DNA of 64,000 bases from Escherichia coli (GCA_902500125.1 GCA_902500125.1_4132.1); one strand, 5' to 3'; shown: positions 47,338 to 62,924, counted from the stretch's first letter. A program made the numbers and translations. Notes: generated by a model from the sequence alone, not told the origin.

Positions 47338-47359
47338 TAACTTGCAGTACTAACAACAC

Positions 47360-47384: not shown

Positions 47385-47398
47385 ATAGGACAAACAAA

Positions 47399-47678: not shown

Positions 47679-47706
47679 GTACACATACCAACACGGGAGA
47701 AACAAA

Positions 47707-47925: not shown

Positions 47926-47954
47926 TTGACAGTACTCAAATGTTTTAGTACTAT
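47926..47954 (+). promoter_or_regulatory. sigma70-like promoter
   Basis: TTGACA-N17-TACTAT. Confidence 0.45.
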
Positions 47955-47983
47955 ATGTACATACCAACACGGGGAAAAACAAA

Positions 47984-48226: not shown

Positions 48227-48257
48227 TATAGTTTCATTAACTCAAGGAGAACATGCA

Positions 48258-48842: not shown

Positions 48843-48856
48843 AAAAGATTAAAAAA

Positions 48857-48930
48857 GGGATTGACTCCGGTCAGTCCCTTTGCTATTATATATCCATTGA
48901 GAGATAACTCACTGACCCATAGGGTGCGGA
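48857..48930 (+). promoter_or_regulatory. extended terminator-promoter module with CCCATAGGGTGC motif
   Basis: Same module as 42463. Confidence 0.55.
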
Positions 48931-48983
48931 AGTGTATCTATTATATAAGTATTCAGTACTGAAAACTATTTTTTAAAAAGTAC

Positions 48984-49043
48984 TTGCATTGTACTTAGAA
49001 TCAAGTATAATGTTTTATATCGAGAGGGGGAAATGGTTCTCCC
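48984..49043 (+). promoter_or_regulatory. promoter plus leader hairpin unit
   Basis: TTGCAT-N16-TATAAT then GGGGGAA-ATGG-TTCTCCC. Confidence 0.55.
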
Positions 49044-49065
49044 TGGTATATTAAGGAATAAAATC

Positions 49066-49287
49066 ATGACTACAATGACTTGCATTTACGCTTCCAATCG
49101 TCTGAATGATGCGGCCTTTAATGTTGATTCAGAATATCAATGTTATCGGGATGAAAATAAAAAAGTTTTTGTAGTTGATAATAATGGTTTCCATATTGAA
49201 TTACAATCCGGCTTCACTGGTGTTGATGGTAAATCAGTATGGGGCGTACAGGATGATAAAGGTACATATCATTTTAAACGTAATTAA
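49066..49287 (+). CDS. hypothetical protein (73 aa)
   Basis: Internal ATG of track ORF 49033..49287. Confidence 0.55.
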   Translation: MTTMTCIYASNRLNDAAFNVDSEYQCYRDENKKVFVVDNNGFHIELQSGFTGVDGKSVWGVQDDKGTYHFKRN

Positions 49288-49291
49288 GTAT

Positions 49292-49350
49292 TTGACAAAG
49301 TATCTTAGTACTGTATAATAGTTTACATCAAGGGGAGAATAGTTCTCCCC
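49292..49350 (+). promoter_or_regulatory. promoter plus leader hairpin unit
   Basis: TTGACA-N16-TATAAT then GGGGAGA-ATAG-TTCTCCCC. Confidence 0.55.
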
Positions 49351-49371
49351 GATACTAAAAGGAATAAAATC

Positions 49372-49776
49372 ATGACTACTACTAATCTTGCTCGGAATAT
49401 CGCCAACGATAAAAATCATGCTGCAATGGTCGCTGGTTACATTGAAGCTATGCAATTCAGTACTGTACATAATGATAACGGCGATTACCTGGAAGATTAT
49501 GAGTTATCTGATGAAGCACGTCAAGCGGCGGTGATTGCATGTTCTCGCTTCATTGAGAAACACGGTAATGATCTGGAAGTAGTTCGCGGTATGTTTATTG
49601 ATTACGGTTATGAGCAAGCTGGTCATGATCTGTTCCTTACCCGCGAAGGTCACGGAACTGGTTTTTGGGATCGTGGTTTAGGTCACTATGGCGATGTATT
49701 CACGAAGTACTGCGAAGAAATCAACGTTTGCGATCCCTATGTAGGCGATGATAACTTAATCTATATGGGCGAATAA
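49372..49776 (+). CDS. hypothetical protein (134 aa)
   Basis: Track ORF. Confidence 0.6.
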   Translation: MTTTNLARNIANDKNHAAMVAGYIEAMQFSTVHNDNGDYLEDYELSDEARQAAVIACSRFIEKHGNDLEVVRGMFIDYGYEQAGHDLFLTREGHGTGFWDRGLGHYGDVFTKYCEEINVCDPYVGDDNLIYMGE

Positions 49777-49782
49777 AAGTAT

Positions 49783-49841
49783 TTGACAAAGTATATCAGT
49801 ACTGTATAATAGTTTACATCAAGGGGAGAATAGTTCTCCCC
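49783..49841 (+). promoter_or_regulatory. promoter plus leader hairpin unit
   Basis: Near-duplicate of 49292 unit. Confidence 0.55.
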
Positions 49842-49863
49842 AATACTAAAAGGAAACAAAATT

Positions 49864-50136
49864 ATGTCCAGCTACTCCGCTACTATGATCATTAAAGATA
49901 TGAACGGTAATCCTACTTCTGCTGGTGGATCATTTGGAAATATTAACTTAGATGGGCGGTTATCCATGCAATCAGCCATCGATGCAGCGAAAGAAGTTTT
50001 TAAGAATGAATGTACTGTTAGTAAGCTGGATTATATGGGTTTCGCTATCGAGAAAACTACTCGTTTTGTGAACTACAAAAATCCACTGATGATTGATACT
50101 AACCTGAAAGCTAACGAAGTGGGGTACTTATTATGA
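49864..50136 (+). CDS. hypothetical protein (90 aa)
   Basis: Track ORF. Confidence 0.55.
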   Translation: MSSYSATMIIKDMNGNPTSAGGSFGNINLDGRLSMQSAIDAAKEVFKNECTVSKLDYMGFAIEKTTRFVNYKNPLMIDTNLKANEVGYLL

Positions 50137-50324
50137 CAGTAGAAGAAGTAAAAAAAGTACTGGCAGTACTACGATATCATAATCATTGCAAGGTGAAGAA
50201 TGATCCTGATTATCTTGATTCATCCCTGGAGGAAGACACCTTGAACGCTATAAGCCATATGCAGACATTAGCAAAGCGTATGACTGAAAAGAACATGCCG
50301 GACTATATCGGAAATAAAATTTAA
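50133..50324 (+). CDS. hypothetical protein (63 aa)
   Basis: Track ORF; ATGA overlap. Confidence 0.5.
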   Translation: MTVEEVKKVLAVLRYHNHCKVKNDPDYLDSSLEEDTLNAISHMQTLAKRMTEKNMPDYIGNKI

Positions 50325-50331
50325 AAAGTAC

Positions 50332-50391
50332 TTGCATTGTAGTTAGATTAACGTATAATGTTTTATATCGAGAGGGGGAAATGGTTTCCCC
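50332..50391 (+). promoter_or_regulatory. promoter plus leader hairpin unit
   Basis: TTGCAT-N16-TATAAT then GGGGGAA-ATGG-TTTCCCCT. Confidence 0.55.
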
Positions 50392-50411
50392 TCAAGTCCA
50401 GGAGATACACA

Positions 50412-50675
50412 ATGAACACTATCGAAATCACTATCAATGCACACGTATACGACAACGTAGTACTGCAAACTACTATGACCGCTAATGATACCAGTACTTT
50501 GCGGAATACTGTTATTAGTGCCGTATGTGCTGCAATCGGTGATGTATCCCTGGAAAATGCAGAACATATCAACAACGGTTTCACTATGTGCAAGCGTGAT
50601 AACGCAAAACATATCATCGTGGAAGGTTACGGCGGTGTAGAATTTAATGTTTATATGAAAAAAGTACTTGCATAA
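50412..50675 (+). CDS. hypothetical protein (87 aa)
   Basis: Internal ATG of track ORF 50358..50675. Confidence 0.55.
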   Translation: MNTIEITINAHVYDNVVLQTTMTANDTSTLRNTVISAVCAAIGDVSLENAEHINNGFTMCKRDNAKHIIVEGYGGVEFNVYMKKVLA

Positions 50676-50724
50676 TAACTAAAACAAAGTATAATGTTTT
50701 GCATAGGGGGAGATATCCTCCCCC
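50668..50724 (+). promoter_or_regulatory. promoter plus leader hairpin unit
   Basis: TTGCAT-N16-TATAAT then GGGGGAG-ATAT-CCTCCCCC. Confidence 0.55.
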
Positions 50725-50742
50725 ACTAAAAGGAGTAATAAA

Positions 50743-50967
50743 ATGGCTAACTTTGATGAACTGATGCGGGAAGTAGCTAACCTGGCAGAAGAGAAGAAAT
50801 CATTCGATTCTATCTATAACACCGCTCACCGTGATTCAGTACTGGCATGTAACCAGGATCAAAAAGATGAACTAATCGCCACCTATCATGAAGCATGGAA
50901 GTACTACCGACAATGGGAGAAAGAAGAAAGTGAGTCTACCATTGACGGCCTCAATAATCTAATCTAA
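50743..50967 (+). CDS. hypothetical protein (74 aa)
   Basis: Track ORF. Confidence 0.55.
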   Translation: MANFDELMREVANLAEEKKSFDSIYNTAHRDSVLACNQDQKDELIATYHEAWKYYRQWEKEESESTIDGLNNLI

Positions 50968-50986
50968 AAGTTTTATTTCAGTACTA

Positions 50987-51017
50987 TTGACATAGCTTGA
51001 TAGTACTGATGTAATAA
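50987..51017 (+). promoter_or_regulatory. sigma70-like promoter
   Basis: TTGACA then weak -10; same architecture as 40187. Confidence 0.4.
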
Positions 51018-51043
51018 CTTTACTAACTACAAGGGGAAACATA

Positions 51044-51301
51044 ATGGATCAGTTCACACAATATCGGGTAAATCCTCAAGCTATGGCCTACGTAGAAGAC
51101 CATAAAACGTTACCAGTACTGCAACCAGTTAAAGGCCATATCTATCGTGCAATGTCGTGGTGTGCGGCCCAGGATGGCTATAAAACCGTAGCCGTTGGTA
51201 TGTACTGCGGTAATGGTGAATGGTTTGATCCAAATAATCCGGTATCCATTGACAGTACTGAAAAAATGAAATGGGCCGACTACATCGAAGATATTTCATA
51301 A
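51044..51301 (+). CDS. hypothetical protein (85 aa)
   Basis: Track ORF. Confidence 0.55.
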   Translation: MDQFTQYRVNPQAMAYVEDHKTLPVLQPVKGHIYRAMSWCAAQDGYKTVAVGMYCGNGEWFDPNNPVSIDSTEKMKWADYIEDIS

Positions 51302-51307
51302 AAACTA

Positions 51308-51368
51308 TTTGACAGTACTAACCAGTAATGTATAATGTTTTACATAGAGCGGGGGAATAGTTCTCCCG
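51308..51368 (+). promoter_or_regulatory. promoter plus leader hairpin unit
   Basis: TTGACA-N16-TATAAT then GCGGGGGAA-TAG-TTCTCCCGC. Confidence 0.55.
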
Positions 51369-51391
51369 CCAATAGTTTGGAGTAAAACATT

Positions 51392-51592
51392 ATGTCTATC
51401 GCTATCGCCCTGGTTGAAGTACTGAAAGAAGCTAAAGCCAACCAGATCGACGTAAAGATCCAGGAACTACAAAACGGCTTAATCGGCTGTACTTGTACCG
51501 CTGGTGGAGCGGCAGACTATCGAGAACACGAATCACTCGAATCACTGGTTCGGTATCTTACCATGATCGTTGATGATTGGAGAATCATCTAA
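51392..51592 (+). CDS. hypothetical protein (66 aa)
   Basis: Track ORF. Confidence 0.55.
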   Translation: MSIAIALVEVLKEAKANQIDVKIQELQNGLIGCTCTAGGAADYREHESLESLVRYLTMIVDDWRII

Positions 51593-51609
51593 CAAAAAAG
51601 AATAAAAAA

Positions 51610-51690
51610 GGGATTGACTCCGGTCAGTCCCTTTGCTATTATATACGCATAGACAAAAACTAGCCCACAGGGTGCATAGGTGTATCCAAA
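51610..51690 (+). promoter_or_regulatory. extended terminator-promoter module with CCCACAGGGTGC motif
   Basis: Same module as 42463. Confidence 0.55.
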
Positions 51691-51836
51691 ATATATAGTT
51701 AATAACGGTGAGTAACTATCTGCTGGTGGAACTAAAACTATTAATAAAAAAGTATTGACAAAGTATATCAGTACTGCAATAATGTATCTCGTAGGGCGGC
51801 AATGGTGCGACGGCCCACAAAGTTAGGAGATTCAAA

Positions 51837-52169
51837 ATGACTACTTCAATCGCTATCGTTAAAGCTTTCATCCGTACTAATGTTTCCTCTGTATTCATCG
51901 ACGGCCTCGACCGTAACGTAGAATACTCAATCATTATCGCACAAACGGCAAACGGTTCTCGGTACATCCTGAATGATAGTGAAGCAAATCACTACTACTT
52001 CACTAAAGCCACTGGCTTTAAACGCATCGATGCTGATGTAGTATACGCTAAGATGAATAAGCTGGTAGACAAGATTAACGCGAAAGGTACTATCGATTTA
52101 CAGTACTGGACCGAAACCGATCCAGAATATGGATCTCACCGCTACCTGAATCCAGGTATTAAAATGTAA
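51837..52169 (+). CDS. hypothetical protein (110 aa)
   Basis: Track ORF; TAGGAGA RBS. Confidence 0.6.
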   Translation: MTTSIAIVKAFIRTNVSSVFIDGLDRNVEYSIIIAQTANGSRYILNDSEANHYYFTKATGFKRIDADVVYAKMNKLVDKINAKGTIDLQYWTETDPEYGSHRYLNPGIKM

Positions 52170-52176
52170 AAAGTAC

Positions 52177-52238
52177 TTGCATAGTACTTAGAATCAAGTA
52201 TAATGTTTTACATAGAGAGGGGGAAATGGTTCTCCCTC
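52177..52238 (+). promoter_or_regulatory. promoter plus leader hairpin unit
   Basis: TTGCAT-N16-TATAAT then GGGGGAA-ATGG-TTCTCCC. Confidence 0.55.
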
Positions 52239-52258
52239 CTAAATTAAGGAGTTTTATC

Positions 52259-52660
52259 ATGACCTTCTCAATCAATTCCTTCGCTGACGTTTTAGTACTG
52301 GCCCGGACTTTTGGTAAAGCTGGCCTTGAACACGCTGTAAGTAATGGTCATATGCACCCTGAATATTGCCGCATCATTGGAAGCTGTAAACGTTGGGCCG
52401 TGTCCCGTAACATTGAGATTGAAAACTTCAATGACGGTAACAACGAATATACAGTTGATGCAGTATTCGAATCCGTTGATCTCGGCGGTATCTATAACAC
52501 TAACCTGAATGATGTGCGTATCGTTCGCACGGGGTTCGGTGCTTATGATGTATCTATCCGTGAAGCTATGGACAAGGGATACATTAGCAAGGACCAGTTA
52601 GCTTACATCATGCAGCAAACTAAGGAACGTAACGAAGCACGTACTATCTTAGGGCTGTAA
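52259..52660 (+). CDS. hypothetical protein (133 aa)
   Basis: Internal ATG of track ORF 52226..52660. Confidence 0.6.
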   Translation: MTFSINSFADVLVLARTFGKAGLEHAVSNGHMHPEYCRIIGSCKRWAVSRNIEIENFNDGNNEYTVDAVFESVDLGGIYNTNLNDVRIVRTGFGAYDVSIREAMDKGYISKDQLAYIMQQTKERNEARTILGL

Positions 52661-52728
52661 GCAATACACATCACCAAACATCATAGGCCGCTCTCTAGCG
52701 GCCTTAACTATATCAGGAGGGCATACAT

Positions 52729-52938
52729 ATGTTCTATACAGTATACAGCGTTCTAGGCACTATTGCAGGCGTACATGATAACGTCGATAGTGCTATGCGT
52801 ACAGTACTGCAACAGGTTCCACTAAAGCCTAAGACCATTAAGCAGATGACAGCACGACTAACCAGGGCGACGGCTGGCGTGGAAGTATGGCAGGACTATG
52901 GGGATACACAGATAATCGTAAGCGTAACGAAGGATTAA
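52729..52938 (+). CDS. hypothetical protein (69 aa)
   Basis: Track ORF; CAGGAGG RBS. Confidence 0.55.
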   Translation: MFYTVYSVLGTIAGVHDNVDSAMRTVLQQVPLKPKTIKQMTARLTRATAGVEVWQDYGDTQIIVSVTKD

Positions 52939-52970: not shown

Positions 52971-53028
52971 AAGTCAAGGCATTTTTAAAAATCAGCGTTA
53001 AAAAAATGCATAGGTAATCCCTTGACTT
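52971..53028. terminator. long inverted repeat, possible bidirectional terminator
   Basis: AAGTCAAGG ... CCTTGACTT arms with A-run before and T-run after. Confidence 0.4.
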
Positions 53029-53129
53029 TTATGAATAAAAAGGGATTGGACTATGGCAAAATGCGTAGGGGGCTTAACTGCGGGTAACCTTAGCGACTTC
53101 GATAAAGGGGTATTACTAATAAAATGTTA

Positions 53130-53158
53130 TTGACTTTTTATACGAATCGTATATTATA
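53130..53158 (+). promoter_or_regulatory. sigma70-like promoter for family B array
   Basis: TTGACT-N17-TATTAT. Confidence 0.5.
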
Positions 53159-53187
53159 GGATTGATATTATTTTTAATGGAGTCCCT

Positions 53188-53385
53188 ATGCGTATTTTAA
53201 CTCAAGCAGAACATCACGAAAGACTTATCAATAACATGGCATATATCCTACATATGTCACATATCCGTGGTATTGCATATAAGCGTGAATTGGTTATGGC
53301 ACTATTCATTGGAACTAACTTTCAGGAAAGGTATGTCAAGGATTGGATTTCATATTTAATTGAAGATATAACGGGTAAACTATGA
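53188..53385 (+). CDS. family B small tandem paralog
   Basis: Track ORF; IGTNFQERY motif. Confidence 0.55.
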   Translation: MRILTQAEHHERLINNMAYILHMSHIRGIAYKRELVMALFIGTNFQERYVKDWISYLIEDITGKL

Positions 53386-53590
53386 AAATTATCACACAAT
53401 TTCAACTATATAATCTTATGATCGAATATAGAAAGAATATATATATATACCAGATGAGTTATCTAGGGATGAAAAAAAGTTTATTCTATCGGAGTGGTGG
53501 ATGATGGCTGGACTGGGAACCAACTTCCAAGAAAGTTTTGTTAATGATTGGATTTTACATTTAATAAAAGATATAAAGAGTAAACAATGA
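53382..53590 (+). pseudogene. family B member interrupted by frameshift at (AT)n tract
   Basis: N-terminus stops at 53502; LGTNFQESF..DIKSKQ continues in another frame; AT dinucleotide run about 53436-53449. Confidence 0.5.
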
Positions 53591-53796
53591 AAACTATAAC
53601 ACGAACCCAATCATTAGGTCTTATCTTGAAATACATGGACTTAATGTTGGATATCAGCAAAGACCTTCCTAAAACTGAAATCCAAGTTGCAAGAGCAGAG
53701 ATCCGCATGTTGGCTGTACTGAACACAAACCATCAGGAAGATTATGTTGAAGAATGGATTCGATTTTTAATAGAAGATATAAAGAGTAAATTATGA
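53587..53796 (+). CDS. family B small tandem paralog
   Basis: Track ORF; ATGA overlap; LNTNHQEDY. Confidence 0.55.
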   Translation: MKTITRTQSLGLILKYMDLMLDISKDLPKTEIQVARAEIRMLAVLNTNHQEDYVEEWIRFLIEDIKSKL

Positions 53797-54008
53797 TTAT
53801 TATAGAAAACTCATATCAATATACTGAACGCATCGCTGCCAGACAACTTGAAATCCTCATAATATACGAAGAGACTTCTGATTTAAACTTAGCCGAGGTA
53901 TTGGAAAATGATATACTATTGGGTGCATTCTTAGGAACAGACTATCAGAAGTATTATGAGGAAAAGTATTTGTCATCTCTTGAGAAATATATCAGGAGCA
54001 AATTATGA
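53793..54008 (+). CDS. family B small tandem paralog
   Basis: Track ORF; LGTDYQKYY. Confidence 0.55.
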   Translation: MIIIENSYQYTERIAARQLEILIIYEETSDLNLAEVLENDILLGAFLGTDYQKYYEEKYLSSLEKYIRSKL

Positions 54009-54217
54009 TTTTTTTAACACCAGAAGAATATAAGAAACGTTTCAATTCCGCACAGGGTGAAATCTTACTTATATACCTTTCAAATGCAGACCTTAACTTA
54101 TCAAGGGTATTAGAAAAAGATTTACTTATGGGTGCATTCCTTGATACAGACTTTCAGGTGTATTATGTAGGGGAATACTTAATTGCACTTCAGAATTATA
54201 TCAGGAGTAAACTATGA
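54005..54217 (+). CDS. family B small tandem paralog
   Basis: Track ORF; LDTDFQVYY. Confidence 0.55.
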   Translation: MIFLTPEEYKKRFNSAQGEILLIYLSNADLNLSRVLEKDLLMGAFLDTDFQVYYVGEYLIALQNYIRSKL

Positions 54218-54441
54218 AACATTTAAGTAATTCCGAGAAGAATAAAATTATCATTGCTGCAATAAACAAATATTTTACACTTCCTCACAAAGAAGGTTTA
54301 TGTATAAGAGAACACAGGATAAACACCACCGATATACGCATGATGGCTGTACTGGGGACGAACTTCCAGGAAGAGTATGTTATTGCACACATAGTTGCAC
54401 TCAAGAATTACATTATGGACAAATGTAATGAACATCATTAA
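54214..54441 (+). CDS. family B small tandem paralog
   Basis: Track ORF; LGTNFQEEY. Confidence 0.55.
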   Translation: MKHLSNSEKNKIIIAAINKYFTLPHKEGLCIREHRINTTDIRMMAVLGTNFQEEYVIAHIVALKNYIMDKCNEHH

Positions 54442-54652
54442 TAACTTTGAATACGAGGCCCGTGCTAAGAGTGCCAGAAAAAAAGAGAACACCATTTACT
54501 TCACTATGATGTACTTACAATGGACTGAAATTGAAGAAAAGGTTGCTGAAGTATGGATGTTGGAATTCATGGGGACGCAGTATCAGAATAGGTTTGCGGG
54601 TGAGTATATCAATGTTCTTATGAAACAAATAGAAAGAAAGGAAAAGAACTAA
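54428..54652 (+). CDS. family B small tandem paralog
   Basis: First ATG in track ORF 54395..54652 (track start is TTG); MGTQYQNRF. Confidence 0.5.
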   Translation: MNIINNFEYEARAKSARKKENTIYFTMMYLQWTEIEEKVAEVWMLEFMGTQYQNRFAGEYINVLMKQIERKEKN

Positions 54653-54810
54653 TGGTTTTCATTAACATATCTGACCAACTCGATACTAAACTAGAAGTCG
54701 AGCAGAGTGAGGGATGGATGTTGTACTTTCTTGGAACTTCTCATCAGAATTTTTATATCCATGAACACATAGTTGCACTCACAAATCTAATAAGGGATAA
54801 ATGTAAATGA
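54652..54810 (+). CDS. family B small tandem paralog (short, 52 aa)
   Basis: TAATG-coupled; LGTSHQNFY; below track cutoff. Confidence 0.45.
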   Translation: MVFINISDQLDTKLEVEQSEGWMLYFLGTSHQNFYIHEHIVALTNLIRDKCK

Positions 54811-55064
54811 AACACTTGACGAACGATGAATATTCACTTAGAATTCGAAAGCTCACCCCAGAAGCAAGAGTAATCTACGATGACGATGCACTTTCATGGA
54901 ACGAGATGAAAGTTAAAGTTCATGAGCTATGGTTGCTGTACTTTGTGGGAACCCAATATCAAGAGAAATATTGTACCGATTATCTTGAACAACTAATGGA
55001 TCTTATACAGATAAAACTAAATGAACGAATTGTGGAAAAATATGAAAACTTTATCAAGCACTGA
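54807..55064 (+). CDS. family B small tandem paralog
   Basis: Track ORF; VGTQYQEKY. Confidence 0.55.
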   Translation: MKHLTNDEYSLRIRKLTPEARVIYDDDALSWNEMKVKVHELWLLYFVGTQYQEKYCTDYLEQLMDLIQIKLNERIVEKYENFIKH

Positions 55065-55293
55065 GTATCAAACTGCCCTCTTCTCCCTTCTAAACACCCT
55101 CCGCACGAACAATAAACTTTATAATTCCCGTGAAGCTGATATCGTCAACGCTGATGTATATCTTAATAAATTCATAGGGACTAACTATCAAGAACTGTTC
55201 ACTCTACGATATATCGCTGCATTGAGAAACGAAATATCAGATAAAACCCGTCAAGCCAGAAGAGAATGGAATAAACAATGCGACAAAGACTAA
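55042..55293 (+). CDS. family B small tandem paralog
   Basis: Internal ATG of track ORF 55021..55293; IGTNYQELF. Confidence 0.5.
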   Translation: MKTLSSTEYQTALFSLLNTLRTNNKLYNSREADIVNADVYLNKFIGTNYQELFTLRYIAALRNEISDKTRQARREWNKQCDKD

Positions 55294-55514
55294 ATCACAA
55301 AATGTATTGTAAACTATTGCAGACACTGGCACAGAAACACTATGACACTGTATCTGAAATATTACCCTATGATATCATGCGTTTAATTCATAGTGAGGCA
55401 GAGATGCTTGTACTGATGACAGGCACTGATAAAAAAGCAATTGCCAAATCAATAGATATGTTCATCGAAGCACAATGTCAACACATTAGAACCGAGATAT
55501 GGAGACGAGAATGA
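55278..55514 (+). CDS. family B small tandem paralog (divergent motif)
   Basis: Track ORF; MTGTDKKAI. Confidence 0.5.
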   Translation: MRQRLNHKMYCKLLQTLAQKHYDTVSEILPYDIMRLIHSEAEMLVLMTGTDKKAIAKSIDMFIEAQCQHIRTEIWRRE

Positions 55515-55726
55515 TAACACTAAATGAGTTTCAGTATCATTGGAGGTTACAAACTATCAAATCAAAAGTGTATAGTATTGTGTTAAACAAATCTATTGCA
55601 CAAGAGGACAAATGTGTTATAATAGCTGAAATGAAGTTGGGTGCTTTCGTAGGGACAAACTATCAAAACATCTACACTGACGTATTGTTAAGTGCCTTAC
55701 GTAACAAGGTGGTATCCAAAATATGA
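55511..55726 (+). CDS. family B small tandem paralog
   Basis: ATGA-coupled ATG in track ORF; VGTNYQNIY. Confidence 0.55.
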   Translation: MITLNEFQYHWRLQTIKSKVYSIVLNKSIAQEDKCVIIAEMKLGAFVGTNYQNIYTDVLLSALRNKVVSKI

Positions 55727-55941
55727 GAAATTTACAAGGCTTTGAATACATCAGACTCCTGAAAACATGCACCAGCAGAAGGAAAATCTTATCAAGCGAT
55801 AAGAGCATCCAAGCTAACCTTAAGCACGCACTAGTAACTGAACTCTATGTAGGTGCACTCTTAGGCACAAACTATCAACAAATGTATGTGGATCTATGGA
55901 TTGACGCTCTACAGAAAGAGGTTAAAAGTAAATGCAAATGA
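55723..55941 (+). CDS. family B small tandem paralog
   Basis: Track ORF; LGTNYQQMY. Confidence 0.55.
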   Translation: MRNLQGFEYIRLLKTCTSRRKILSSDKSIQANLKHALVTELYVGALLGTNYQQMYVDLWIDALQKEVKSKCK

Positions 55942-56150
55942 TTAATTTAAGTAAAGATGAATATTATGAACGTCTTGCAAAAACTTATCCAGCACGTAAG
56001 GCCGTTTATGATAGTCACATTATTGAACGCTCAAAGAAGTTGATTGTAGTAAATGAGATTAAGATGCTTTCAGTCTTAGGAACAAACTATCAAGAGAATG
56101 CTGTACTGTTGTTAATTGATGCCCTCCAGAGAGAGATACAAAGTAAATGA
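55938..56150 (+). CDS. family B small tandem paralog
   Basis: ATGA-coupled ATG in track ORF; LGTNYQENA. Confidence 0.55.
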   Translation: MINLSKDEYYERLAKTYPARKAVYDSHIIERSKKLIVVNEIKMLSVLGTNYQENAVLLLIDALQREIQSK

Positions 56151-56395
56151 TTCATTTATCTTACCATGATTATCAAAAACGTTTAAATGCATCAAGGGAT
56201 ATAAGGATTCAAATCTTCAATAACAAAAAATTGAAACCTGACACCAGAAGAATCAAAATGATAGAAGCAGAGTTATGCAACTTCCTGGGGACGAACTATC
56301 AGGCAGGTAAGGTAAAAAACTATCTTAGAGAACTAATGATTTGTATCGAAAATAAATGTGAGGTTGATGAACATGCAAATGATCAATTTAAGTAA
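56147..56395 (+). CDS. family B small tandem paralog
   Basis: Track ORF; LGTNYQAGK. Confidence 0.55.
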   Translation: MIHLSYHDYQKRLNASRDIRIQIFNNKKLKPDTRRIKMIEAELCNFLGTNYQAGKVKNYLRELMICIENKCEVDEHANDQFK

Positions 56396-56636
56396 AGATG
56401 AATATACCGAGCGTATGACAAAAATTACGCACAAACGTAATACAATCTATCACAACCCAGAAATTCAACACAGTAAGAAAATGATTATGATGCGTGAGTT
56501 AAAGATGGGTGTATTCTTGGGAACAAACTATCAAGAGCCAGAAGTAAATCGATTAATTGCTGAGTTACTATTGGAAATCAAAGGTAAGCTGTACTTTCAT
56601 CAAATGACCCAGCCACTGAGGTGTACTGATCGATGA
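56379..56636 (+). CDS. family B small tandem paralog
   Basis: Internal ATG (MINLSKDEY) of track ORF; LGTNYQEPE. Confidence 0.5.
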   Translation: MINLSKDEYTERMTKITHKRNTIYHNPEIQHSKKMIMMRELKMGVFLGTNYQEPEVNRLIAELLLEIKGKLYFHQMTQPLRCTDR

Positions 56637-56884
56637 ATGCGATGAATATTGTGAATAACATCAGATTAGCAGAAAGATTTGATAGAATTGGGGAAGCACT
56701 GAGAAGATACGATAAAGAATATGGTCATTTGAGCTTTTCTATAGAAAAGAGATATGAACTTGAAGCAGAGTTTAAAATGCAGAGTCTCTTAGGCACACAG
56801 TATCAAAACCAATATATTCAAACTTGGATTGATTGTTTAATCCAGACAATTTACGTAAGAAACATTAAATGCAAAATGAAATGA
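56633..56884 (+). CDS. family B small tandem paralog
   Basis: Track ORF; LGTQYQNQY. Confidence 0.55.
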   Translation: MNAMNIVNNIRLAERFDRIGEALRRYDKEYGHLSFSIEKRYELEAEFKMQSLLGTQYQNQYIQTWIDCLIQTIYVRNIKCKMK

Positions 56885-57129
56885 TATACTTAACCTATAA
56901 TGAATACGTCGAGAGATTAGTTCGTGCCAAGAGATATACCAATAAACGTCCAATTGACCTAAACCAAACCCCAGCAGAAAGGAGTGCAGAAGTATTATTC
57001 CAATCACTACCATATCTTCTGGGAACTGATAGACAAGAGGAATATGTTGCACGTATGATTAGATATCTTAAAATCACTATTAAGGAAAAAGTAAATGCAA
57101 ATGCAAATGAAATACTTAACAGACGATGA
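56881..57129 (+). CDS. family B small tandem paralog
   Basis: ATGA-coupled ATG in track ORF; LGTDRQEEY. Confidence 0.55.
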   Translation: MIYLTYNEYVERLVRAKRYTNKRPIDLNQTPAERSAEVLFQSLPYLLGTDRQEEYVARMIRYLKITIKEKVNANANEILNRR

Positions 57130-57352
57130 GTTAAAAGAACGACTAATTAAATCCAGAAAACTTACAAATCAACTTCCAAACGACACAAACAAGTCACATG
57201 CCGAAAGGAGTGCAGAAGTTTTATACATTCAACTCATGTACTTTCTTGGTACTGACAGACAAGAGTATTACATTGAAAGTATGCTTCGATATCTTAAATT
57301 CTCTATAAAGGAAAAGATACATGCTCAAGAATTTAAAAATCCTAACAGTTAA
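57107..57352 (+). CDS. family B small tandem paralog
   Basis: Internal ATG (MKYLTDDE) of track ORF; LGTDRQEYY. Confidence 0.5.
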   Translation: MKYLTDDELKERLIKSRKLTNQLPNDTNKSHAERSAEVLYIQLMYFLGTDRQEYYIESMLRYLKFSIKEKIHAQEFKNPNS

Positions 57353-57563
57353 TGAATATCATAAGATTGTAATGAAAACTAATAGTGAAATTTCTAAAAA
57401 ATCAAACCCAAAGTACATACTGGAACACACATTCGAAGAACGTCAATTAGCTCTAGTTGAAGCAAAACTTCTTGCACTCCTAGGGACTAACTATCAAGAA
57501 GAATACATCAGAAAACTAATATACCTTTTAACTAAACATATAAGAAAAAGAAAAAATGCATGA
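57321..57563 (+). CDS. family B small tandem paralog
   Basis: Track ORF; LGTNYQEEY. Confidence 0.55.
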   Translation: MLKNLKILTVNEYHKIVMKTNSEISKKSNPKYILEHTFEERQLALVEAKLLALLGTNYQEEYIRKLIYLLTKHIRKRKNA

Positions 57564-57790
57564 AACACTTGACAGATGATGAACATGGGCTTATAGTAAT
57601 GGATGTAATCAACATCGAATACAAAAAGTTGATACGCTACCGTTGTTATGAAGATAAGCAACTCGTTCTAGCAGAACAGAAGTTGTTTCGACTCTTAAAC
57701 ACAAACTTCCAAGCACAATACGAAGAATCGTATATGTACCTTTTGGCGAGGAAAGCAAAAAGAGATTATGAAAATTTTAAGCAAAGGTGA
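57560..57790 (+). CDS. family B small tandem paralog
   Basis: Track ORF; LNTNFQAQY. Confidence 0.55.
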   Translation: MKHLTDDEHGLIVMDVINIEYKKLIRYRCYEDKQLVLAEQKLFRLLNTNFQAQYEESYMYLLARKAKRDYENFKQR

Positions 57791-57983
57791 TTCAGTAATA
57801 TTACTTATAGAGAGTTCAAGTAAATTCTTAAACATAACACTGTCTGATATAGATGAAGATGACAAAGAAGTACTGAGAGCAGATTTAAGAGTACTGTTAC
57901 ATATCGGAACAAACCTACAAGAAGAATATGTAGAGTGCTACATCAATGAACTTAAAGAATTAGTACTGAGAAAATGCAAATGA
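57768..57983 (+). CDS. family B small tandem paralog
   Basis: Track ORF; IGTNLQEEY. Confidence 0.55.
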   Translation: MKILSKGDSVILLIESSSKFLNITLSDIDEDDKEVLRADLRVLLHIGTNLQEEYVECYINELKELVLRKCK

Positions 57984-58201
57984 AAATCATTACCGATGCA
58001 GAATACCTAACAATCATAAATGGACTGTTTTTGAAGCTCTTCGTCATTAACACATCAGATATACCAGATATGGATAAAATTATTAAGAGAAATGAAGTCT
58101 ATGTTCTAGCTACCCTTGGAACGAACTATCAAGAACACGACATTAAAGATTATATTAATACACTTAAACGAGCGATTGAACTAAAATGCCAAAACCACTA
58201 G
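57980..58201 (+). CDS. family B small tandem paralog
   Basis: ATGA-coupled ATG in track ORF; LGTNYQEHD. Confidence 0.55.
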   Translation: MKIITDAEYLTIINGLFLKLFVINTSDIPDMDKIIKRNEVYVLATLGTNYQEHDIKDYINTLKRAIELKCQNH

Positions 58202-58401
58202 GAACAGCAGAATACATTGAACTAATGGGATTACACTTCTCATCCTTTCAGAAACTTATGCGAGAATCAAAGAATGATTTAGAATATACCATCAGAGGTT
58301 CCGATTTAAGAATGCTTCTCACCCTAGACACAGATTCCCAAGAGCGATTTGTCAATGAGCATATTAGAGCACTTTTAATGGAAATTCAAAGTAAACTATG
58401 A
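58186..58401 (+). CDS. family B small tandem paralog
   Basis: Track ORF; LDTDSQERF. Confidence 0.55.
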   Translation: MPKPLGTAEYIELMGLHFSSFQKLMRESKNDLEYTIRGSDLRMLLTLDTDSQERFVNEHIRALLMEIQSKL

Positions 58402-58613
58402 AGGTAATATCAAATCAAGAGTACTTGGCACTATTCAGGAAGAATAATCACAAATATATGGCACTTGATTCAAGAACTGATATAAGTGAACTTGAAAAAA
58501 ATCTTTTGCGTTCAGATATGATAGTACTGACACTCTTAGGAACACAGCATCAAGAGAGAACTGTTAATTCACACATAGGGATTCTAATGCAGATAGTACA
58601 GGAAAAGATATGA
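58398..58613 (+). CDS. family B small tandem paralog
   Basis: Track ORF; LGTQHQERT. Confidence 0.55.
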   Translation: MKVISNQEYLALFRKNNHKYMALDSRTDISELEKNLLRSDMIVLTLLGTQHQERTVNSHIGILMQIVQEKI

Positions 58614-58831
58614 GAATCATAACACAACAAGATATTCTTAAGTTCACAAGGGTTCATGCATCTGAATTTGATGCTATATTATCAAAAAGTTACAACAACC
58701 CTTATACAGAAGATGTACACTACAATGAATTATGGGTGTATATACTTTTAGGTACAGATCATCAAGAGCAAGCAGTACAGAAGTATTTGTTAGCTTTACG
58801 TGATGCTACTGCTAATGGAGTACGTGTTTAA
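58610..58831 (+). CDS. family B small tandem paralog
   Basis: Track ORF; LGTDHQEQA. Confidence 0.55.
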   Translation: MRIITQQDILKFTRVHASEFDAILSKSYNNPYTEDVHYNELWVYILLGTDHQEQAVQKYLLALRDATANGVRV

Positions 58832-58832
58832 T

Positions 58833-59075
58833 ATGAAAGTACTGACAGAACTAGAAATGTATCATAGATTTAATAAGTACTATCATTTACTTAAGCCTAT
58901 ACAGAGGATTAAATGTCCATTTGAAGAGAAACAGGTATTAATTTATGAGCATAAGTTATTTGTATCATTAGGTACAGATCAACAAGAGTACTATTTGACG
59001 TTGTACTTGATTACATTAATAGATTTAATTTACTATAAAACCAAACAAGCTAATAAAGAGAAATATGAAAACTAA
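58833..59075 (+). CDS. family B small tandem paralog
   Basis: ATG just after upstream stop in track ORF 58800..59075; LGTDQQEYY. Confidence 0.55.
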   Translation: MKVLTELEMYHRFNKYYHLLKPIQRIKCPFEEKQVLIYEHKLFVSLGTDQQEYYLTLYLITLIDLIYYKTKQANKEKYEN

Positions 59076-59409
59076 TATACAACTCAAGGTATATAAATCA
59101 TTTGAACATACATATATCAAAAGTAGTCTATGTAGAGATGTAATGGATTACAAGGGTAAGCCATTCACAATTACTTATGATTCTTATGTTGATGATTTAT
59201 ATATATCATTTGTTAATTACGAAAATAAAATATACAAGCACGTTGATATTAAAGATTTAAGTACTTTATCACCAGAGGAATACTTCCAGGAATCATTAGT
59301 ATGGGATTTAGAGTTCCCTATGCCATTAGTACATAAGATGATAGTACTAATGAAAGAATCTAAACAGGAGCCTAATAGTGCTTATGAAGAACACATTATT
59401 GAGTATTAA
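59065..59409 (+). CDS. family C paralog (EEYFQESL motif)
   Basis: Track ORF; PEEYFQESLVWDLEF. Confidence 0.55.
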   Translation: MKTNIQLKVYKSFEHTYIKSSLCRDVMDYKGKPFTITYDSYVDDLYISFVNYENKIYKHVDIKDLSTLSPEEYFQESLVWDLEFPMPLVHKMIVLMKESKQEPNSAYEEHIIEY

Positions 59410-59779
59410 GAGTACTGATAATATTAAGAGTTATACAAGCTCAAGTACTGTGACAATCGAAGTGAATTCTATTAATGCTGGTAATGCAGTAGATAAGTTC
59501 TTTATTGCTCAAGGGTACAGGAAAGATATTCATCAATATTGTTCAGTATATGGGGAGTACAATAGTACTGAAGATATAATTTATTGGTCAACACATCAAG
59601 ATTATCTAACTAAAATTGGAGTCCCAGATGTTAGTACTTTATCTGAAGAAGAATACTTTCAGTACAGCTTAATATGTGATGTACCTATACCTTTAGGGTT
59701 AATCAAGGGTATACAGGAAGAGGTTCATAAGCTTAAATCCATGAGTAAAGGTACTTTCATTAGAACAGTGCAATACTAG
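59384..59779 (+). CDS. family C paralog
   Basis: Track ORF 59378..59779; SEEEYFQYSLICDV. Confidence 0.55.
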   Translation: MKNTLLSIKSTDNIKSYTSSSTVTIEVNSINAGNAVDKFFIAQGYRKDIHQYCSVYGEYNSTEDIIYWSTHQDYLTKIGVPDVSTLSEEEYFQYSLICDVPIPLGLIKGIQEEVHKLKSMSKGTFIRTVQY

Positions 59780-59780
59780 C

Positions 59781-59809
59781 TTGACAGTACTTTTCATTAC
59801 TGATATAGT
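59781..59809 (+). promoter_or_regulatory. sigma70-like promoter
   Basis: TTGACA-N17-TATAGT. Confidence 0.4.
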
Positions 59810-59838
59810 ACACTAACGTTAATCATAGGGTAAAAATT

Positions 59839-60084
59839 ATGTTAAATTTTTTAAATTTCCTTATCGTTTTGTGTATTGTTCTTGGGATTGCACCATTTGT
59901 ATTGTATTTCATGGATTCAGATGAAATGCAGAAGATGAATTGTACAAGGACAGGACAGAGTAGAGAAGAGACGATTCTTATGCCTGTTACGGTTATTGTT
60001 AACAACATGCCCATTACAAACATGGTCCCTACCCTAACGACAACGTACCAGTACTCTTGTGCTGACGGAGAGAGGTGGAGATGA
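59839..60084 (+). CDS. small protein with N-terminal transmembrane segment
   Basis: Track ORF; MLNFLNFLIVLCIVLGIAPFVLYF. Confidence 0.5.
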   Translation: MLNFLNFLIVLCIVLGIAPFVLYFMDSDEMQKMNCTRTGQSREETILMPVTVIVNNMPITNMVPTLTTTYQYSCADGERWR

Positions 60085-60401
60085 AATTTAATATAGCAAA
60101 AACATCGAGTATATGTATTTTTGGTTATGCAGAAGAGTTAGGTGATATTGACATTCTTTTGTACAAAAAGGATGGTGTTATGCATTTCAAGTACCAGGAT
60201 GAAGAGGCAGACAATTATCTTTTACCTAATTTAGTACAAATGCAGGAAGAGGAATTATTCCAGTACAGCTTAGTATACGACATTGATATTTGCACGATGC
60301 CAGTACTAATTAGTATTCAAAAAGTGATGCTCGATATGTATGATAAGCTAATACAAGGTACATCAGGGAGAATCATTGAAATCGATATACAAGACAATTA
60401 A
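60081..60401 (+). CDS. family C paralog
   Basis: ATGA-coupled ATG in track ORF 60075..60401; EEELFQYSLVYDI. Confidence 0.55.
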   Translation: MKFNIAKTSSICIFGYAEELGDIDILLYKKDGVMHFKYQDEEADNYLLPNLVQMQEEELFQYSLVYDIDICTMPVLISIQKVMLDMYDKLIQGTSGRIIEIDIQDN

Positions 60402-60594
60402 TCAAGAATGGAAGACCCAAAAGTACAGGGAATTCAACAGGAATTTTACAAAAGATGCATTGAATTTAAAAACAACAGAGTTTGATATGTTTATTTTTCT
60501 TGGAACACGTTCACAAGAACAATTTGTTCATTATTATATAAATTCGTTGCGAACGGAGATAGTATGCAAAACACAGGGTATTATAAAAAGGTAA
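60376..60594 (+). CDS. family B-like small protein
   Basis: Track ORF; FLGTRSQEQFVHYYINSL. Confidence 0.5.
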   Translation: MKSIYKTINQEWKTQKYREFNRNFTKDALNLKTTEFDMFIFLGTRSQEQFVHYYINSLRTEIVCKTQGIIKR

Positions 60595-60830
60595 ACCAAT
60601 ATTTGTACGCTACAAAGTACAGGGATTTTTGTTTAAAGGGTGGTGATGAAGATTTTTCTTTGCGATTATCAGAATTTAATCTGTTATTTTATCTTGGTAC
60701 AAAAGAACAAGAAGAAATGGCACAGAAATTTATCAAGCACCTTTTACAAAAAATTAATATGCAAATTTTGATGCTTAAGTTACAGAATGAGATAAATGAA
60801 TATGAATCCAGAAATAGTACAGGATCTTAA
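60564..60830 (+). CDS. family B-like small protein
   Basis: Track ORF; YLGTKEQEEMAQKFI. Confidence 0.5.
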   Translation: MQNTGYYKKVNQYLYATKYRDFCLKGGDEDFSLRLSEFNLLFYLGTKEQEEMAQKFIKHLLQKINMQILMLKLQNEINEYESRNSTGS

Positions 60831-61188
60831 ACAAGTAATATTCCTTTTGAATACCAGAAGTGAATTGTATACAGAGTTAAAAGAGATTAATGCATTTTAT
60901 CAGAATTTTGTAATCCAAGAGTTCAGTGATTTAATTACAGATGCATTATTTGAATTCTCGGAGAAATACAAAGGAACAGAGTTCAGTGTTAAGAATGTTA
61001 TTCGTCCAAGTACAAGGAAAATTATATTATCACATTTTACATTTGACAATAAAGATTTATTCAGTCATAATCCAAGTACAGCTTTATATTTTATTCCTGA
61101 TTCAGACAAAAATCATCCTATTCATTACGGATGGATTTTGTCATATATAGTACAAGGAAAGGAGTATCCTATTAAATGGAAAGATTAG
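60802..61188 (+). CDS. hypothetical protein
   Basis: Track ORF 60796..61188. Confidence 0.5.
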   Translation: MNPEIVQDLKQVIFLLNTRSELYTELKEINAFYQNFVIQEFSDLITDALFEFSEKYKGTEFSVKNVIRPSTRKIILSHFTFDNKDLFSHNPSTALYFIPDSDKNHPIHYGWILSYIVQGKEYPIKWKD

Positions 61189-61337: not shown

Positions 61338-61540
61338 TGCAAAAGATTAATACGATAACATTAAATGCATTACAGGATTCATTATTAGATAGTATTAAGA
61401 TGTATTACAATATACATTTGAAGGGTGGTATTGATAATTACGATTATTATTTGAGTTTAATTACATTTGAGCACCTTTCAGTACAGGACAGGATTATACA
61501 TCCTACAAATCCTAGGTATCCATCGATAGGTAAATTATGA
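61337..61540 (+). CDS. hypothetical protein (67 aa)
   Basis: Track ORF. Confidence 0.5.
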   Translation: MQKINTITLNALQDSLLDSIKMYYNIHLKGGIDNYDYYLSLITFEHLSVQDRIIHPTNPRYPSIGKL

Positions 61541-62085
61541 ATGAGATAGATTTATTAGCACACAAGATAAGTACAATAATGCTTATCCTCAATAACAACC
61601 ATCCTATATCGCAGATAGATGGAATCCTGAGTCAGAGGACAGGTGGTAGTTTATATTTGTCCATAAACGCAGATATCGCAAGGAAATACATTGATATTGA
61701 TGTTGAAATCGAATATGATACAACGGGGATTGTTGATGTAGGAGCATTAATCAGTTCAAATCCAGTATCAGCATCCCCATTGACCAAAGATGTTAGTACA
61801 GGATTCGAAGGATATTTGTGGTACAATACCAATGATGATTATTTTATATATCAGCATTCCAATACAAATTATGATGAAGACAAATTTCAGTTCATAGACC
61901 CTTATGATGAAGCTGAAGTATTTCAAAAATCATTAATCACAAAACCGCATGAGATGATGTATCTAATGTTATTCAGTACAATGCATTTGAATCCATTAAT
62001 TAAAGGTTTAAAATTTTATATTCAATTAAATTTAGTCCATGTAGTTTATGATTTATTAATGCAAGGATATAGTTATGAAGTATAA
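61537..62085 (+). CDS. family C paralog
   Basis: Track ORF; DEAEVFQKSLIT. Confidence 0.55.
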   Translation: MNEIDLLAHKISTIMLILNNNHPISQIDGILSQRTGGSLYLSINADIARKYIDIDVEIEYDTTGIVDVGALISSNPVSASPLTKDVSTGFEGYLWYNTNDDYFIYQHSNTNYDEDKFQFIDPYDEAEVFQKSLITKPHEMMYLMLFSTMHLNPLIKGLKFYIQLNLVHVVYDLLMQGYSYEV

Positions 62086-62386
62086 AATGATGTATACCCC
62101 AGATATGATTTATGTTGAATTAGAAGATGATGACGATGGGTGGAATTTGATTTATTCAAGAAGTTCAGGTTGGTACATGGCACATTTAAATGATTCGATA
62201 GTTACAGATTATTTTGTAGATTTCAATACATTATCCGATGAAGAATTGTTCCAACAGCAATTAGTGATTGACACGGGTGGTTATGATGTCTTATTATTAA
62301 AAAAGATACAAAAAGCTGTTATTGATTTTAAGCCCATGATATGGCAAAGGAAATATTATGACCTCGAAGTACCATACCAGCAATGA
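62075..62386 (+). CDS. family C paralog
   Basis: Track ORF; SDEELFQQQLVID. Confidence 0.55.
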   Translation: MKYKMMYTPDMIYVELEDDDDGWNLIYSRSSGWYMAHLNDSIVTDYFVDFNTLSDEELFQQQLVIDTGGYDVLLLKKIQKAVIDFKPMIWQRKYYDLEVPYQQ

Positions 62387-62924
62387 AATTCAGTACACCT
62401 ACGCTAATGCAATCCTTATGGGACAAAAGTTAGCTTGTATTGTTGCAGCCTTATATAATGCCCAGAAATATCACAAGCGTCATTTCCACAAATGTATTGG
62501 TATTATTCCATCGAAGTACAATACATATATTGCGTGCACGAGTCATTTTGATAAACGATTCAATACACCTGATACCCCAAATGCCAGTAGTGTTATTGGT
62601 CTTTTGGATTTCGCACCTGGTGCTGTTATTGGAAAGAATGATTTAGAGTACACATGGTATAATAAAAATGCCCCGTTAGTAATGGGAAAATATGATACAG
62701 AAACGAATAAAACAATAGAGTACAATACATATAAATCAGAGGAAGAATTTTTCCAAGGTTCATTGCTTGTACCAGTGCGTTTGTTGTTTTATAATGTCCT
62801 TATTAGTACAGTACACAATAGTCCATTACACAAGAATCACAAAATTAATTTCAATTTTTGTGCTTATGCGATTGATGGTGTGTATGAGTGTTTAATGGAG
62901 GTATTGAGTTATGAAGCTGAATAA
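62358..62924 (+). CDS. family C paralog
   Basis: Track ORF; SEEEFFQGSLLVP. Confidence 0.55.
   Translation: MTSKYHTSNEIQYTYANAILMGQKLACIVAALYNAQKYHKRHFHKCIGIIPSKYNTYIACTSHFDKRFNTPDTPNASSVIGLLDFAPGAVIGKNDLEYTWYNKNAPLVMGKYDTETNKTIEYNTYKSEEEFFQGSLLVPVRLLFYNVLISTVHNSPLHKNHKINFNFCAYAIDGVYECLMEVLSYEAE

Follow-up and report, generated by a model that had tools for sequence, protein, structure and literature searches.

A tandem array of about 30 divergent small paralogs, predicted to be four-helix modules, beside the terminal repeat of an Asteriusvirus jumbo phage

Organisation of the array and its members

The DNA analysed here is a stretch of 64 kb (64,000 nucleotides, Escherichia coli assembly GCA_902500125.1; hereafter the window) in which 27 consecutive genes of one family of small proteins, 26 intact and one frameshifted, occupy positions 53188..59075 of the + strand, as seen by open reading frame (ORF) listing and by a six-frame motif scan, with two further members on the same strand at 60376..60594 and 60564..60830. 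The first-pass annotation of this DNA had described about 27 paralogs of 52-85 aa on the + strand and two more at 60376..60830, and both statements were upheld by the ORF listing, the motif scan and a profile built from the members themselves. The motif [LIVMF][GDN]-T-x-x-Q was present about 45 residues into the 26 intact ORFs, and the rest of the 64 kb window contained no comparable hit apart from those in the two outlying genes. All 29 members were scored by their own profile at E values of 1e-15 to 2e-27, the best match elsewhere in the window having an E value of about 0.5 and the others being worse. The sizes of 52-85 aa within the array hold when the consensus start (MKxLTxxEY) is used, the starts of the longest ORFs being over-extended for some members.

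Megablast searches of a phage collection, with the array and the 15 kb upstream of it as queries, identified the source as an Asteriusvirus, that is, a jumbo myovirus of the PBECO4/121Q/G17 type infecting E. coli and Salmonella with a genome of 350-380 kb. The array was matched by 36 phage records at approximately 85-95% nucleotide identity, and every gene beneath these matches is annotated as a hypothetical protein. The family accounts for about 1 gene in 20 (roughly 5%) of these 350-kb phages.

The array genes follow one another without intergenic space. The ATGA overlap of 4 nt named by the first-pass annotation is found at 16 of the 27 junctions, the TAATG form that it also named was not seen as a junction class in the array, and the remaining junctions are overlaps of 1 to 32 nt (10/27) and a single 1-nt gap. 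The codons of the conserved C-terminal ..[KR]-S-K-L are purine-rich (AAGAGTAAA / AGGAGTAAA) and in many cases also serve the following gene as its Shine-Dalgarno sequence, for example at 53775..53796, 53987..54008 and 54196..54217, where the next ATG overlaps the stop codon (ATGA); each duplicated unit therefore brings the ribosome-binding site of its downstream neighbour with it. As read from the sequence, the string of genes without gaps and with overlapping stop and start codons is consistent with one translationally coupled transcript.

By homology, the array begins right after the left direct terminal repeat (DTR), whose inner boundary is placed approximately at 53090 in the window. The annotated DTR of phage vB_Ec-M-J extends to record position 21525, which leaves 99 nt to the first array gene, and this junction aligns near window position 53090, 40 nt before a sigma-70-like promoter candidate (TTGACT, 16 nt spacer, TATTAT; 53130..53157, + strand) that matches the consensus at 10 of 12 positions. 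A GGAG stands 7 nt ahead of the ATG of the first gene at 53188. The promoter candidate is conserved: vB_Ec-M-J has it, and so does G17 with a variant -10 box. The single upstream promoter named by the first-pass annotation is no more than plausible; a match of 11/12 also occurs within the array, at 57569, where it overlies coding sequence for the N-terminal MKHLTD. In Klebsiella phage Muenster (genus Alcyoneusvirus) the first two genes past the annotated terminal-repeat end (20030) are likewise family members, so that, as judged from these alignments and annotations, the position of the family is conserved in two genera.

The individual members, all on the + strand and all recovered by the profile, differ in length and in the residues of the motif. 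Member 1 (53188..53385, 65 aa, IGTNFQE) was found by ORF listing and motif as well. Member 2 (53382..53590) is the broken copy, in which a (TA)6 run at about 53436..53449 shifts the frame by +2 and leaves the front half as a 40-aa ORF (53382..53504) and the back half, ending in ..GLGTNFQESFVNDWILHLIKDIKSKQ and a stop codon, in another frame; phage TH47 has (TA)5 and an intact gene of 68 aa at this slot, and the (TA)6 run may be either a sequencing error or a site truly prone to slippage. The slot-2 allele of the window also departs strongly from its counterparts in G17, CRJP21 and vB_Ec-M-J. Member 3 (53587..53796, 69 aa, LNTNHQE) matches both phrog_28039 and phrog_4148, member 4 (53793..54008, 71 aa) is 53% identical to member 5 (54005..54217, 70 aa, LDTDFQ; PHROG match and motif), and member 6 (54214..54441, 75 aa) was also found by motif. 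Member 7 (54428..54652) has 74 aa from the consensus ATG, its longest ORF starting from a TTG at 54395. Member 8 (54652..54810, 52 aa) is a natural N-terminally short form that aligns with profile positions 27-72 only and is kept as such in G17, CRJP21, PBECO4 and SD-15. Next come member 9 (54807..55064, 85 aa, PHROG match) and member 10 (55042..55293, 83 aa from the consensus ATG, longest ORF from 55021). Member 11 (55278..55514) is the outlier, with TGTDKKAIAKS in place of the usual core, K for Q and a 5-residue insertion across two alignment indel sites.

In the middle of the array are found member 12 (55511..55726, 71 aa), member 13 (55723..55941, 72 aa, PHROG match), whose sequence was used for structure prediction, member 14 (55938..56150, 70 aa), which is 51% identical to member 16, member 15 (56147..56395, 82 aa), member 16 (56379..56636, 85 aa from the consensus ATG), member 17 (56633..56884, 83 aa) and member 18 (56881..57129, 82 aa, LGTDRQE, PHROG match), which is 52% identical to member 19 (57107..57352, 81 aa). 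The ortholog of member 20 (57321..57563, 80 aa, PHROG match) is fused to the next member in the metagenomic protein P0001. The last part consists of member 21 (57560..57790, 76 aa, LNTNFQ), member 22 (57768..57983, 71 aa), member 23 (57980..58201, 73 aa, PHROG match), member 24 (58186..58401, 71 aa, LDTDSQ), member 25 (58398..58613, 71 aa, PHROG match), member 26 (58610..58831, 73 aa) and member 27 (58833..59075, 80 aa from the consensus ATG, longest ORF from 58800), followed at a distance by outlying member 28 (60376..60594, 72 aa, LGTRSQE, PHROG match) and outlying member 29 (60564..60830, 88 aa, LGTKEQE).

Sequence conservation and predicted fold

In a multiple alignment of 28 sequences the members align from end to end and not just at the motif, with an N-terminal pattern M-K-x-L-T-x-x-E-Y, a centre E...L-G-T-N-Y-Q-E-x-Y-V and a C-terminal I-x-x-L-x-x-x-I-x-x-K. 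The first-pass annotation had assigned the extended core to every member. This holds for the Thr (T49, 28/28) and very nearly for the Gln (Q52, 27/28), with L63 equally frequent (27/28), but it is too strong for the flanking motif positions, since the Gly is present in 24/28, an E or N follows the Gln in 22/28 and the residue after the Thr is varied (N in 13, D in 8, Q in 4, otherwise S, R or K).

AlphaFold2 modelling of the member 13 sequence with the 28-sequence paralog alignment gave a very confident model, with a predicted local distance difference test score (pLDDT) of 97.5 and a predicted template modelling score of 0.82, and with helices at residues 6-14, 17-25, 31-45 and 52-71 and a beta-bridge from residue 2 to the invariant Thr49. 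From these helix limits and this bridge it follows that G-T-x-x-Q is the turn between helix 3 and helix 4, tied to the N-terminal strand. The model of member 11, the most divergent copy, keeps the helix layout at a pLDDT of 79. By these predictions each gene encodes an independent four-helix module, in which the N-terminal strand (MKxLT) pairs with the Thr of the L-G-T-x-x-Q turn.

Nineteen columns of the alignment are at least 70% hydrophobic and coincide with the conserved set, the conserved columns being mostly hydrophobic or located at the turn between helices 3 and 4. Among polar positions, conservation is seen at E8, E/D40, G48, T49, Q52 and K70. T5-x-x-E8 before helix 1 and [ND]50-x-x-E53 before helix 4 look like helix N-capping boxes, as read from the DSSP string of the model and not from its coordinates. 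The variable columns are polar, and among the members the isoelectric point (pI) ranges from 4.4 to 9.8 and the net charge from -6 to +8; no transmembrane-like hydrophobicity was seen. Projected on the model, the conserved residues are mainly those of the predicted hydrophobic core and of the helix 3/4 turn, and the sequence and charge of the outward surfaces vary widely, most of all on the exposed side of helix 4. The "conserved scaffold" with a variable surface of the first-pass annotation is borne out by these data; its word "hypervariable", in the sense of ongoing diversification, is not, the paralogs being ancient and their slots kept, with selection as described below.

Relatives, duplication history and genomic surroundings

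The family was not recognised in the first-pass annotation, and database searches led to the same result, a catalogue entry being its only relative. The PHROG 4148 profile matched 9 of the 10 members tested (E 7e-9 to 7e-24) over approximately positions 1-72 of 74, as did longer fusion proteins of the family, and member 11 (55278) had no PHROG hit. Sequence-profile searches of the members against Pfam, NCBIfam, PADLOC and PDB gave nothing above noise; the PADLOC hits were isolated, with E values of 0.0015 or weaker and each for 1 of 28 members, and no library dedicated to anti-defence was searched. The AlphaFold2 model had no significant structural match in the PDB, its neighbours there being generic helical bundles, and a Foldseek comparison with T4 Vs.4 (7uq2; Acb2/Vs.4 anti-defence fold) gave an E value of 6.1 and a TM score of 0.45. 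An exhaustive HMMER search of 1.84 billion representative proteins retrieved just 90 clusters at E values up to 1e-3, and L-G-[TS]-x-x-Q or a near variant was present in all 29 of the lower-scoring clusters retrieved. In the literature, no description of the array was found, the family being catalogued only as a PHROG of unknown function, nor was a transcriptome of Asteriusvirus or of RaK2-like coliphages; the Avs5/JADA jumbo-phage paper concerns a different phage family.

Outside Asteriusvirus, weak hits of the representative-protein search led to three metagenomic contigs (L012-L014) of a more distant uncultured phage with 12-16 members, of which about 13 form a tight array that comes after a region of spaced small genes; the region upstream of this array is approximately 76% identical to Klebsiella phages RaK2, K64-1 and Muenster. 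A profile scan of the first 45 kb of Muenster found 12 members in groups of 1-3 between 20231 and 37484, and tblastn with a Muenster member also reached RaK2, K64-1, RCIP0023, KP13-7 and phiKp_21. The Klebsiella members were missed by single-sequence tblastn and came to light only through the profile scan of the locus and the Klebsiella query. Fused and extended forms exist as well: the metagenomic P0001 is a two-domain fusion of two adjacent members, members P0183 and P0189 (L012 and L013), forms of 121-133 aa in the Klebsiella-like lineage, carry C-terminal extensions, and P0191, a protein of 269 aa with an unrelated 200-aa C-terminal part, lies directly downstream of the array in UB-like Asteriusvirus strains (10001..10810 in L009-L011).

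The paralogs of the window have a mean pairwise identity of 24% with a maximum of 53%, and neighbours are more alike than distant copies, identity being 0.30 at lag 1 vs 0.24 at lags of at least 8 (permutation p<1e-4), with the top three pairs at lags 1-2, that is, adjacent or next but one. Full-length homology, adjacency, common orientation and greater similarity between neighbours, as seen in a family made by tandem duplication, are therefore all present. At the DNA level, the only repeats in 53000..61000 are of 25-98 nt and about 60-84% identity, mostly over motif codons and gene junctions, and no long or high-identity repeats were found there. These short and diverged repeats, taken with the similarity of neighbours, indicate that the array arose by tandem duplication long ago. 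A recent accordion-like expansion or gene conversion was ruled out, there being no DNA repeats beyond the motif codons and no paralog identity above 53%. Signs of a diversity-generating retroelement were also absent, with no reverse transcriptase domain among the neighbouring ORFs scanned and no near-identical template and variable repeats in 53000..61000.

Seven comparison genomes contain 28-31 members in the same slot order, and most orthologs are 95-100% identical, some slots differing by 25-55% between strains. The pooled ortholog ratio of nonsynonymous to synonymous polymorphism (pN/pS) was 0.41 for the family and 0.32 for the flanking genes, which indicates purifying yet fairly relaxed selection. 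Column by column, paralog entropy tracks ortholog change (Spearman rho 0.60, p 3e-8), and the fastest ortholog change is found at helix 4 positions 53, 54, 57, 58, 61, 64, 66 and 68, on the predicted exposed face. Ongoing hypervariation of the paralogs is not supported.

Upstream of the array, a DTR-like region of about 32.7-53.1 kb contains short genes 60-100 nt apart and 19 near-consensus sigma-70 promoters, 11 of them perfect; the perfect ones fall between 32.7 and 51.4 kb. In CBB, a RaK2-like relative, RpoD-type promoters and short ORFs by the terminal repeat have been proposed to form an early, host-takeover region (PMC5259590), and phAPEC6 codes for a sigma factor of its own. Between about 44400 and 52260 of the window there are 8-9 copies of a cassette (e.g. 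45969..46031, 48970..49032, 50318..50380 and 52163..52225) made of AAAAAGTACTTGCA/TTGACA as -35 box, TATAAT as -10 box, a GGGGGAA..TTCCCC hairpin and a ribosome-binding site, each followed by a short gene. A second hairpin with a 12-bp stem (AAAGGGATTGACTCCGGTCAGTCCCTTT) is present in three copies (45847..45874, 48854..48881 and 51607..51634) and carries a TTGACT -35 box in the stem with TATTAT after it, an arrangement that looks like a combined terminator and promoter unit. Pfam searches with 46 short ORFs of 34169..52938 found a ParE-like toxin domain, a DksA/TraR C4 zinc finger, a GNAT acetyltransferase and two proteins with DUF7249, and the remaining ORFs of this set had no Pfam match.

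Directly downstream of the array lies a second, smaller paralog family (59065..59409, 59378..59779 and 60075..60401, with weaker copies at 61537..62085 and 62060..62921), which is interleaved with outlying members 28 and 29, has a ..EE(E)(Y/L)FQxSL...P.. motif and matches phrog_13866, of unknown function; pairwise BLAST E values between its copies are 3e-8 and 1e-5. The C-terminal domain of P0191 was considered as a link to this second family and rejected, as it has no significant similarity to it. Over the whole window, GC skew and coding strand switch together at about 18000 and 32000 (+ to 18 kb, - from 18 to 32 kb, + after), the + block from 32 kb being the start of the terminal-repeat-like region. 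No tRNA genes were found in the 64 kb.

Proposed function and comparison with known systems

The array is best described as an old family of small soluble proteins, of about 70 aa each, that was duplicated in tandem in a RaK2-like jumbo phage. Tentatively, and with somewhat less than even confidence, it is proposed to be an early-expressed panel of diversified binders of host proteins, serving takeover or counter-defence and possibly toxin neutralisation. The first-pass annotation had likewise compared it to a library of binders or inhibitors, for example against host defence, and such a function is a reasonable inference from context. According to this proposal, host RNA polymerase would transcribe the array early in infection, after the early genes encoded by the repeat, and the paralogs would act as stoichiometric binders, each with its own partner among host proteins, for host takeover or for counter-defence including the neutralisation of toxins or effectors. 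The family would have grown through successive tandem duplications, each copy then diverging and becoming fixed, a T4-style tandem amplification being the possible start and the present array its long-term diverged outcome. If the paralogs are indeed distinct early binders, they would make up a natural set of about 30 probes or inhibitors for targets in E. coli and Salmonella, and would be a case of long-term amplification and divergence in a phage, a process seen so far mainly as short-lived laboratory amplification.

A more specific form of this proposal, and a rather doubtful one, is that a single scaffold carries about 30 specificities: the N-terminal strand and the G-T-x-x-Q turn would dock one common partner, e.g. 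a host protease, RNA polymerase or a phage effector, and the variable helix faces would differ from paralog to paralog in the defence or housekeeping protein of the host that they bind. Were this true, the array would be an adaptor or inhibitor library following the logic of the poxvirus Bcl-2-like proteins and the largest single-family counter-defence repertoire known in bacteriophage.

Several observations weigh against the binder panel. Profile and structure searches found no characterised binder, inhibitor or anti-defence protein that is homologous to the family, and the promoter candidate of the array, with just 10/12 consensus positions, is weaker than the promoters of the repeat. There is no gene-wide positive selection of the kind that an arms race might leave (pN/pS of 0.41 vs 0.32 in the flanks), and the ortholog slots at 45-75% identity are matched by similar divergence in neighbouring non-family genes, so that the strong divergence of these slots may be general mosaicism. 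The invariance of the Thr and the Gln across three lineages could mark a shared functional site and not an element of the fold. Finally, virion mass spectrometry can miss small proteins, which bears on the absence of 8-10 kDa proteins from the phAPEC6 virion proteome (see below), a negative finding that otherwise counts in favour of the panel.

Among the alternatives, a set of immunity or antitoxin-type proteins is a sub-case of the binder idea and is considered unlikely. Each paralog would then neutralise one variant of a polymorphic toxin, the toxins being those of host abortive-infection or toxin-antitoxin systems, bacteriocins, or toxins of the phage itself and of its competitors. Small, all-helical members in tandem do resemble the orphan-immunity arrays of polymorphic toxin loci. 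A ParE-like domain is encoded nearby, in the DTR-like region of the window and also in the uncultured relative, the DTR of Muenster has YeeU-like and YafQ-like genes, and T4 TifA shows that a small phage protein can inhibit a host toxin (PMC9391042). However, the members match neither colicin/pyocin immunity proteins, by Pfam profile (PF01320) or by structural comparison with Im7/Im9, nor antitoxin families in sequence or fold, and no cognate toxin genes are interleaved in the array according to the ORF listing.

The paralogs could also be subunits of one hetero-oligomeric intracellular assembly or scaffold whose stoichiometry is set by translational coupling. The tight coupling without intergenic space, the retention of all slots across genomes, the natural two-domain fusion P0001 and the partly hydrophobic character (fraction 0.4-0.6) of several variable columns, which might form interfaces, would all agree with such an assembly. 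A fixed complex is nevertheless hard to square with copy numbers that vary by lineage (28-31 in Asteriusvirus, 12-16 in the uncultured relative, 12 in Muenster) and with the scattering of the Muenster genes in groups of 1-3. Single slots are moreover lost, truncated or frameshifted in phages that persist, the spread of charge from -6 to +8 speaks against it too, and no member was detected in virions, the 62-protein virion proteome of phAPEC6 containing none of 8-10 kDa and none from the array's part of the genome (PMC7247149). This explanation is regarded as quite unlikely.

That the paralogs might be RNA chaperones or small regulators that bind nucleic acids, with DNA or RNA of the host or the phage as their target, is suggested by a pI above 8 in 17/28 members (median 8.6) and by the superficial likeness of A-x-x-L-G-T-x-x-Q to the turn of a helix-turn-helix (HTH) motif. 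The other 11 members are neutral or acidic, with pI values down to 4.4, and no HTH (Cro/CI, XRE type) or other DNA-binding family of Pfam or NCBIfam was matched, the one weak Sar-family hit of a single member (E 0.02) being below the cutoff. In the model, helices 3 and 4 have 15 and 20 residues, and the 6-residue loop between them is tied to the N-terminus, which is not HTH geometry; this geometry and the lack of HTH proteins among the structural neighbours rule out the HTH reading of the motif, and nucleic-acid binding as a whole is judged improbable.

To the same low degree, the array might be a redundant or near-neutral expansion, held by dosage or weak selection, whose copies have no distinct functions. 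The relaxed pN/pS of 0.41, the one frameshifted and the one truncated copy and the tolerance of jumbo phage capsids for extra DNA would allow this. Against it, copies at 24% mean identity are each kept as an intact ORF, in the same order, in genomes from several continents, the columns conserved among paralogs are also conserved among orthologs, and the family has also been kept in a second genus and an uncultured lineage. Fragmentation of one large degraded gene, which the first-pass annotation had named as an outcome that would refute it, or an annotation artefact has nothing more in its favour than the one frameshifted copy and is refuted by units that each have their own Met start and stop and align from end to end, by a single unit predicted to fold alone at a pLDDT of 97.5, by the conservation of separate ORFs in more than 30 genomes and by a pN/pS below 1.

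The proposed panel of binders can be set beside several known systems. PHROG 4148 (and PHROG 28039) is the same family as the array, the PHROG entry coming without function, structure or a description of the array. Colicin/pyocin DNase immunity proteins of the Im7/Im9 type, about 85 aa long and built of four helices, combine a conserved hot-spot with variable specificity helices and are often present as tandem orphan copies; the array members are like them in being small and, by prediction, four-helical, with a conserved part, variable helices and tandem copies. The terminal redundancy genes of SPO1 and the pre-early genes of T5 are terminal-repeat host-takeover modules of large virulent phages. 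With these and with the CBB region, the array region shares dozens of short genes at or near the terminal repeat, sigma-70 promoters and a direction of reading inward, but those modules consist of unrelated genes with their own promoters, whereas the array, located immediately outside the repeat, is one overlapping operon in which a single family is present about 30 times.

A documented route to such an array is the amplification of tifA in T4, a small early accessory gene that is amplified in tandem by recombination and whose product directly binds and inhibits a host defence toxin, thereby overcoming toxIN (Srikant, Guegler and Laub 2022, PMC9391042). No kinship to TifA surfaced in searches run for other ends, none having been aimed at TifA. 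The tifA copies are recent and near-identical and act by dosage, whereas the Asteriusvirus copies are at 24% identity, fixed across genomes and without DNA repeats of the kind that accompany recent amplification. The functional model proposed for the array comes from multigene families of eukaryotic viruses: the vaccinia Bcl-2-like proteins and the multigene family (MGF) 110/360/505 proteins of African swine fever virus are numerous divergent paralogs of a small, mostly helical scaffold, encoded in clusters towards the genome ends, each of which binds a different component of host defence. Viruses are known to expand small accessory genes into multigene families close to their genome ends, and what is unusual for a bacteriophage is the scale of about 30 copies in a single operon. 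A predicted fold with no structural relative and a conserved placement at the terminal-repeat boundary are unusual as well.

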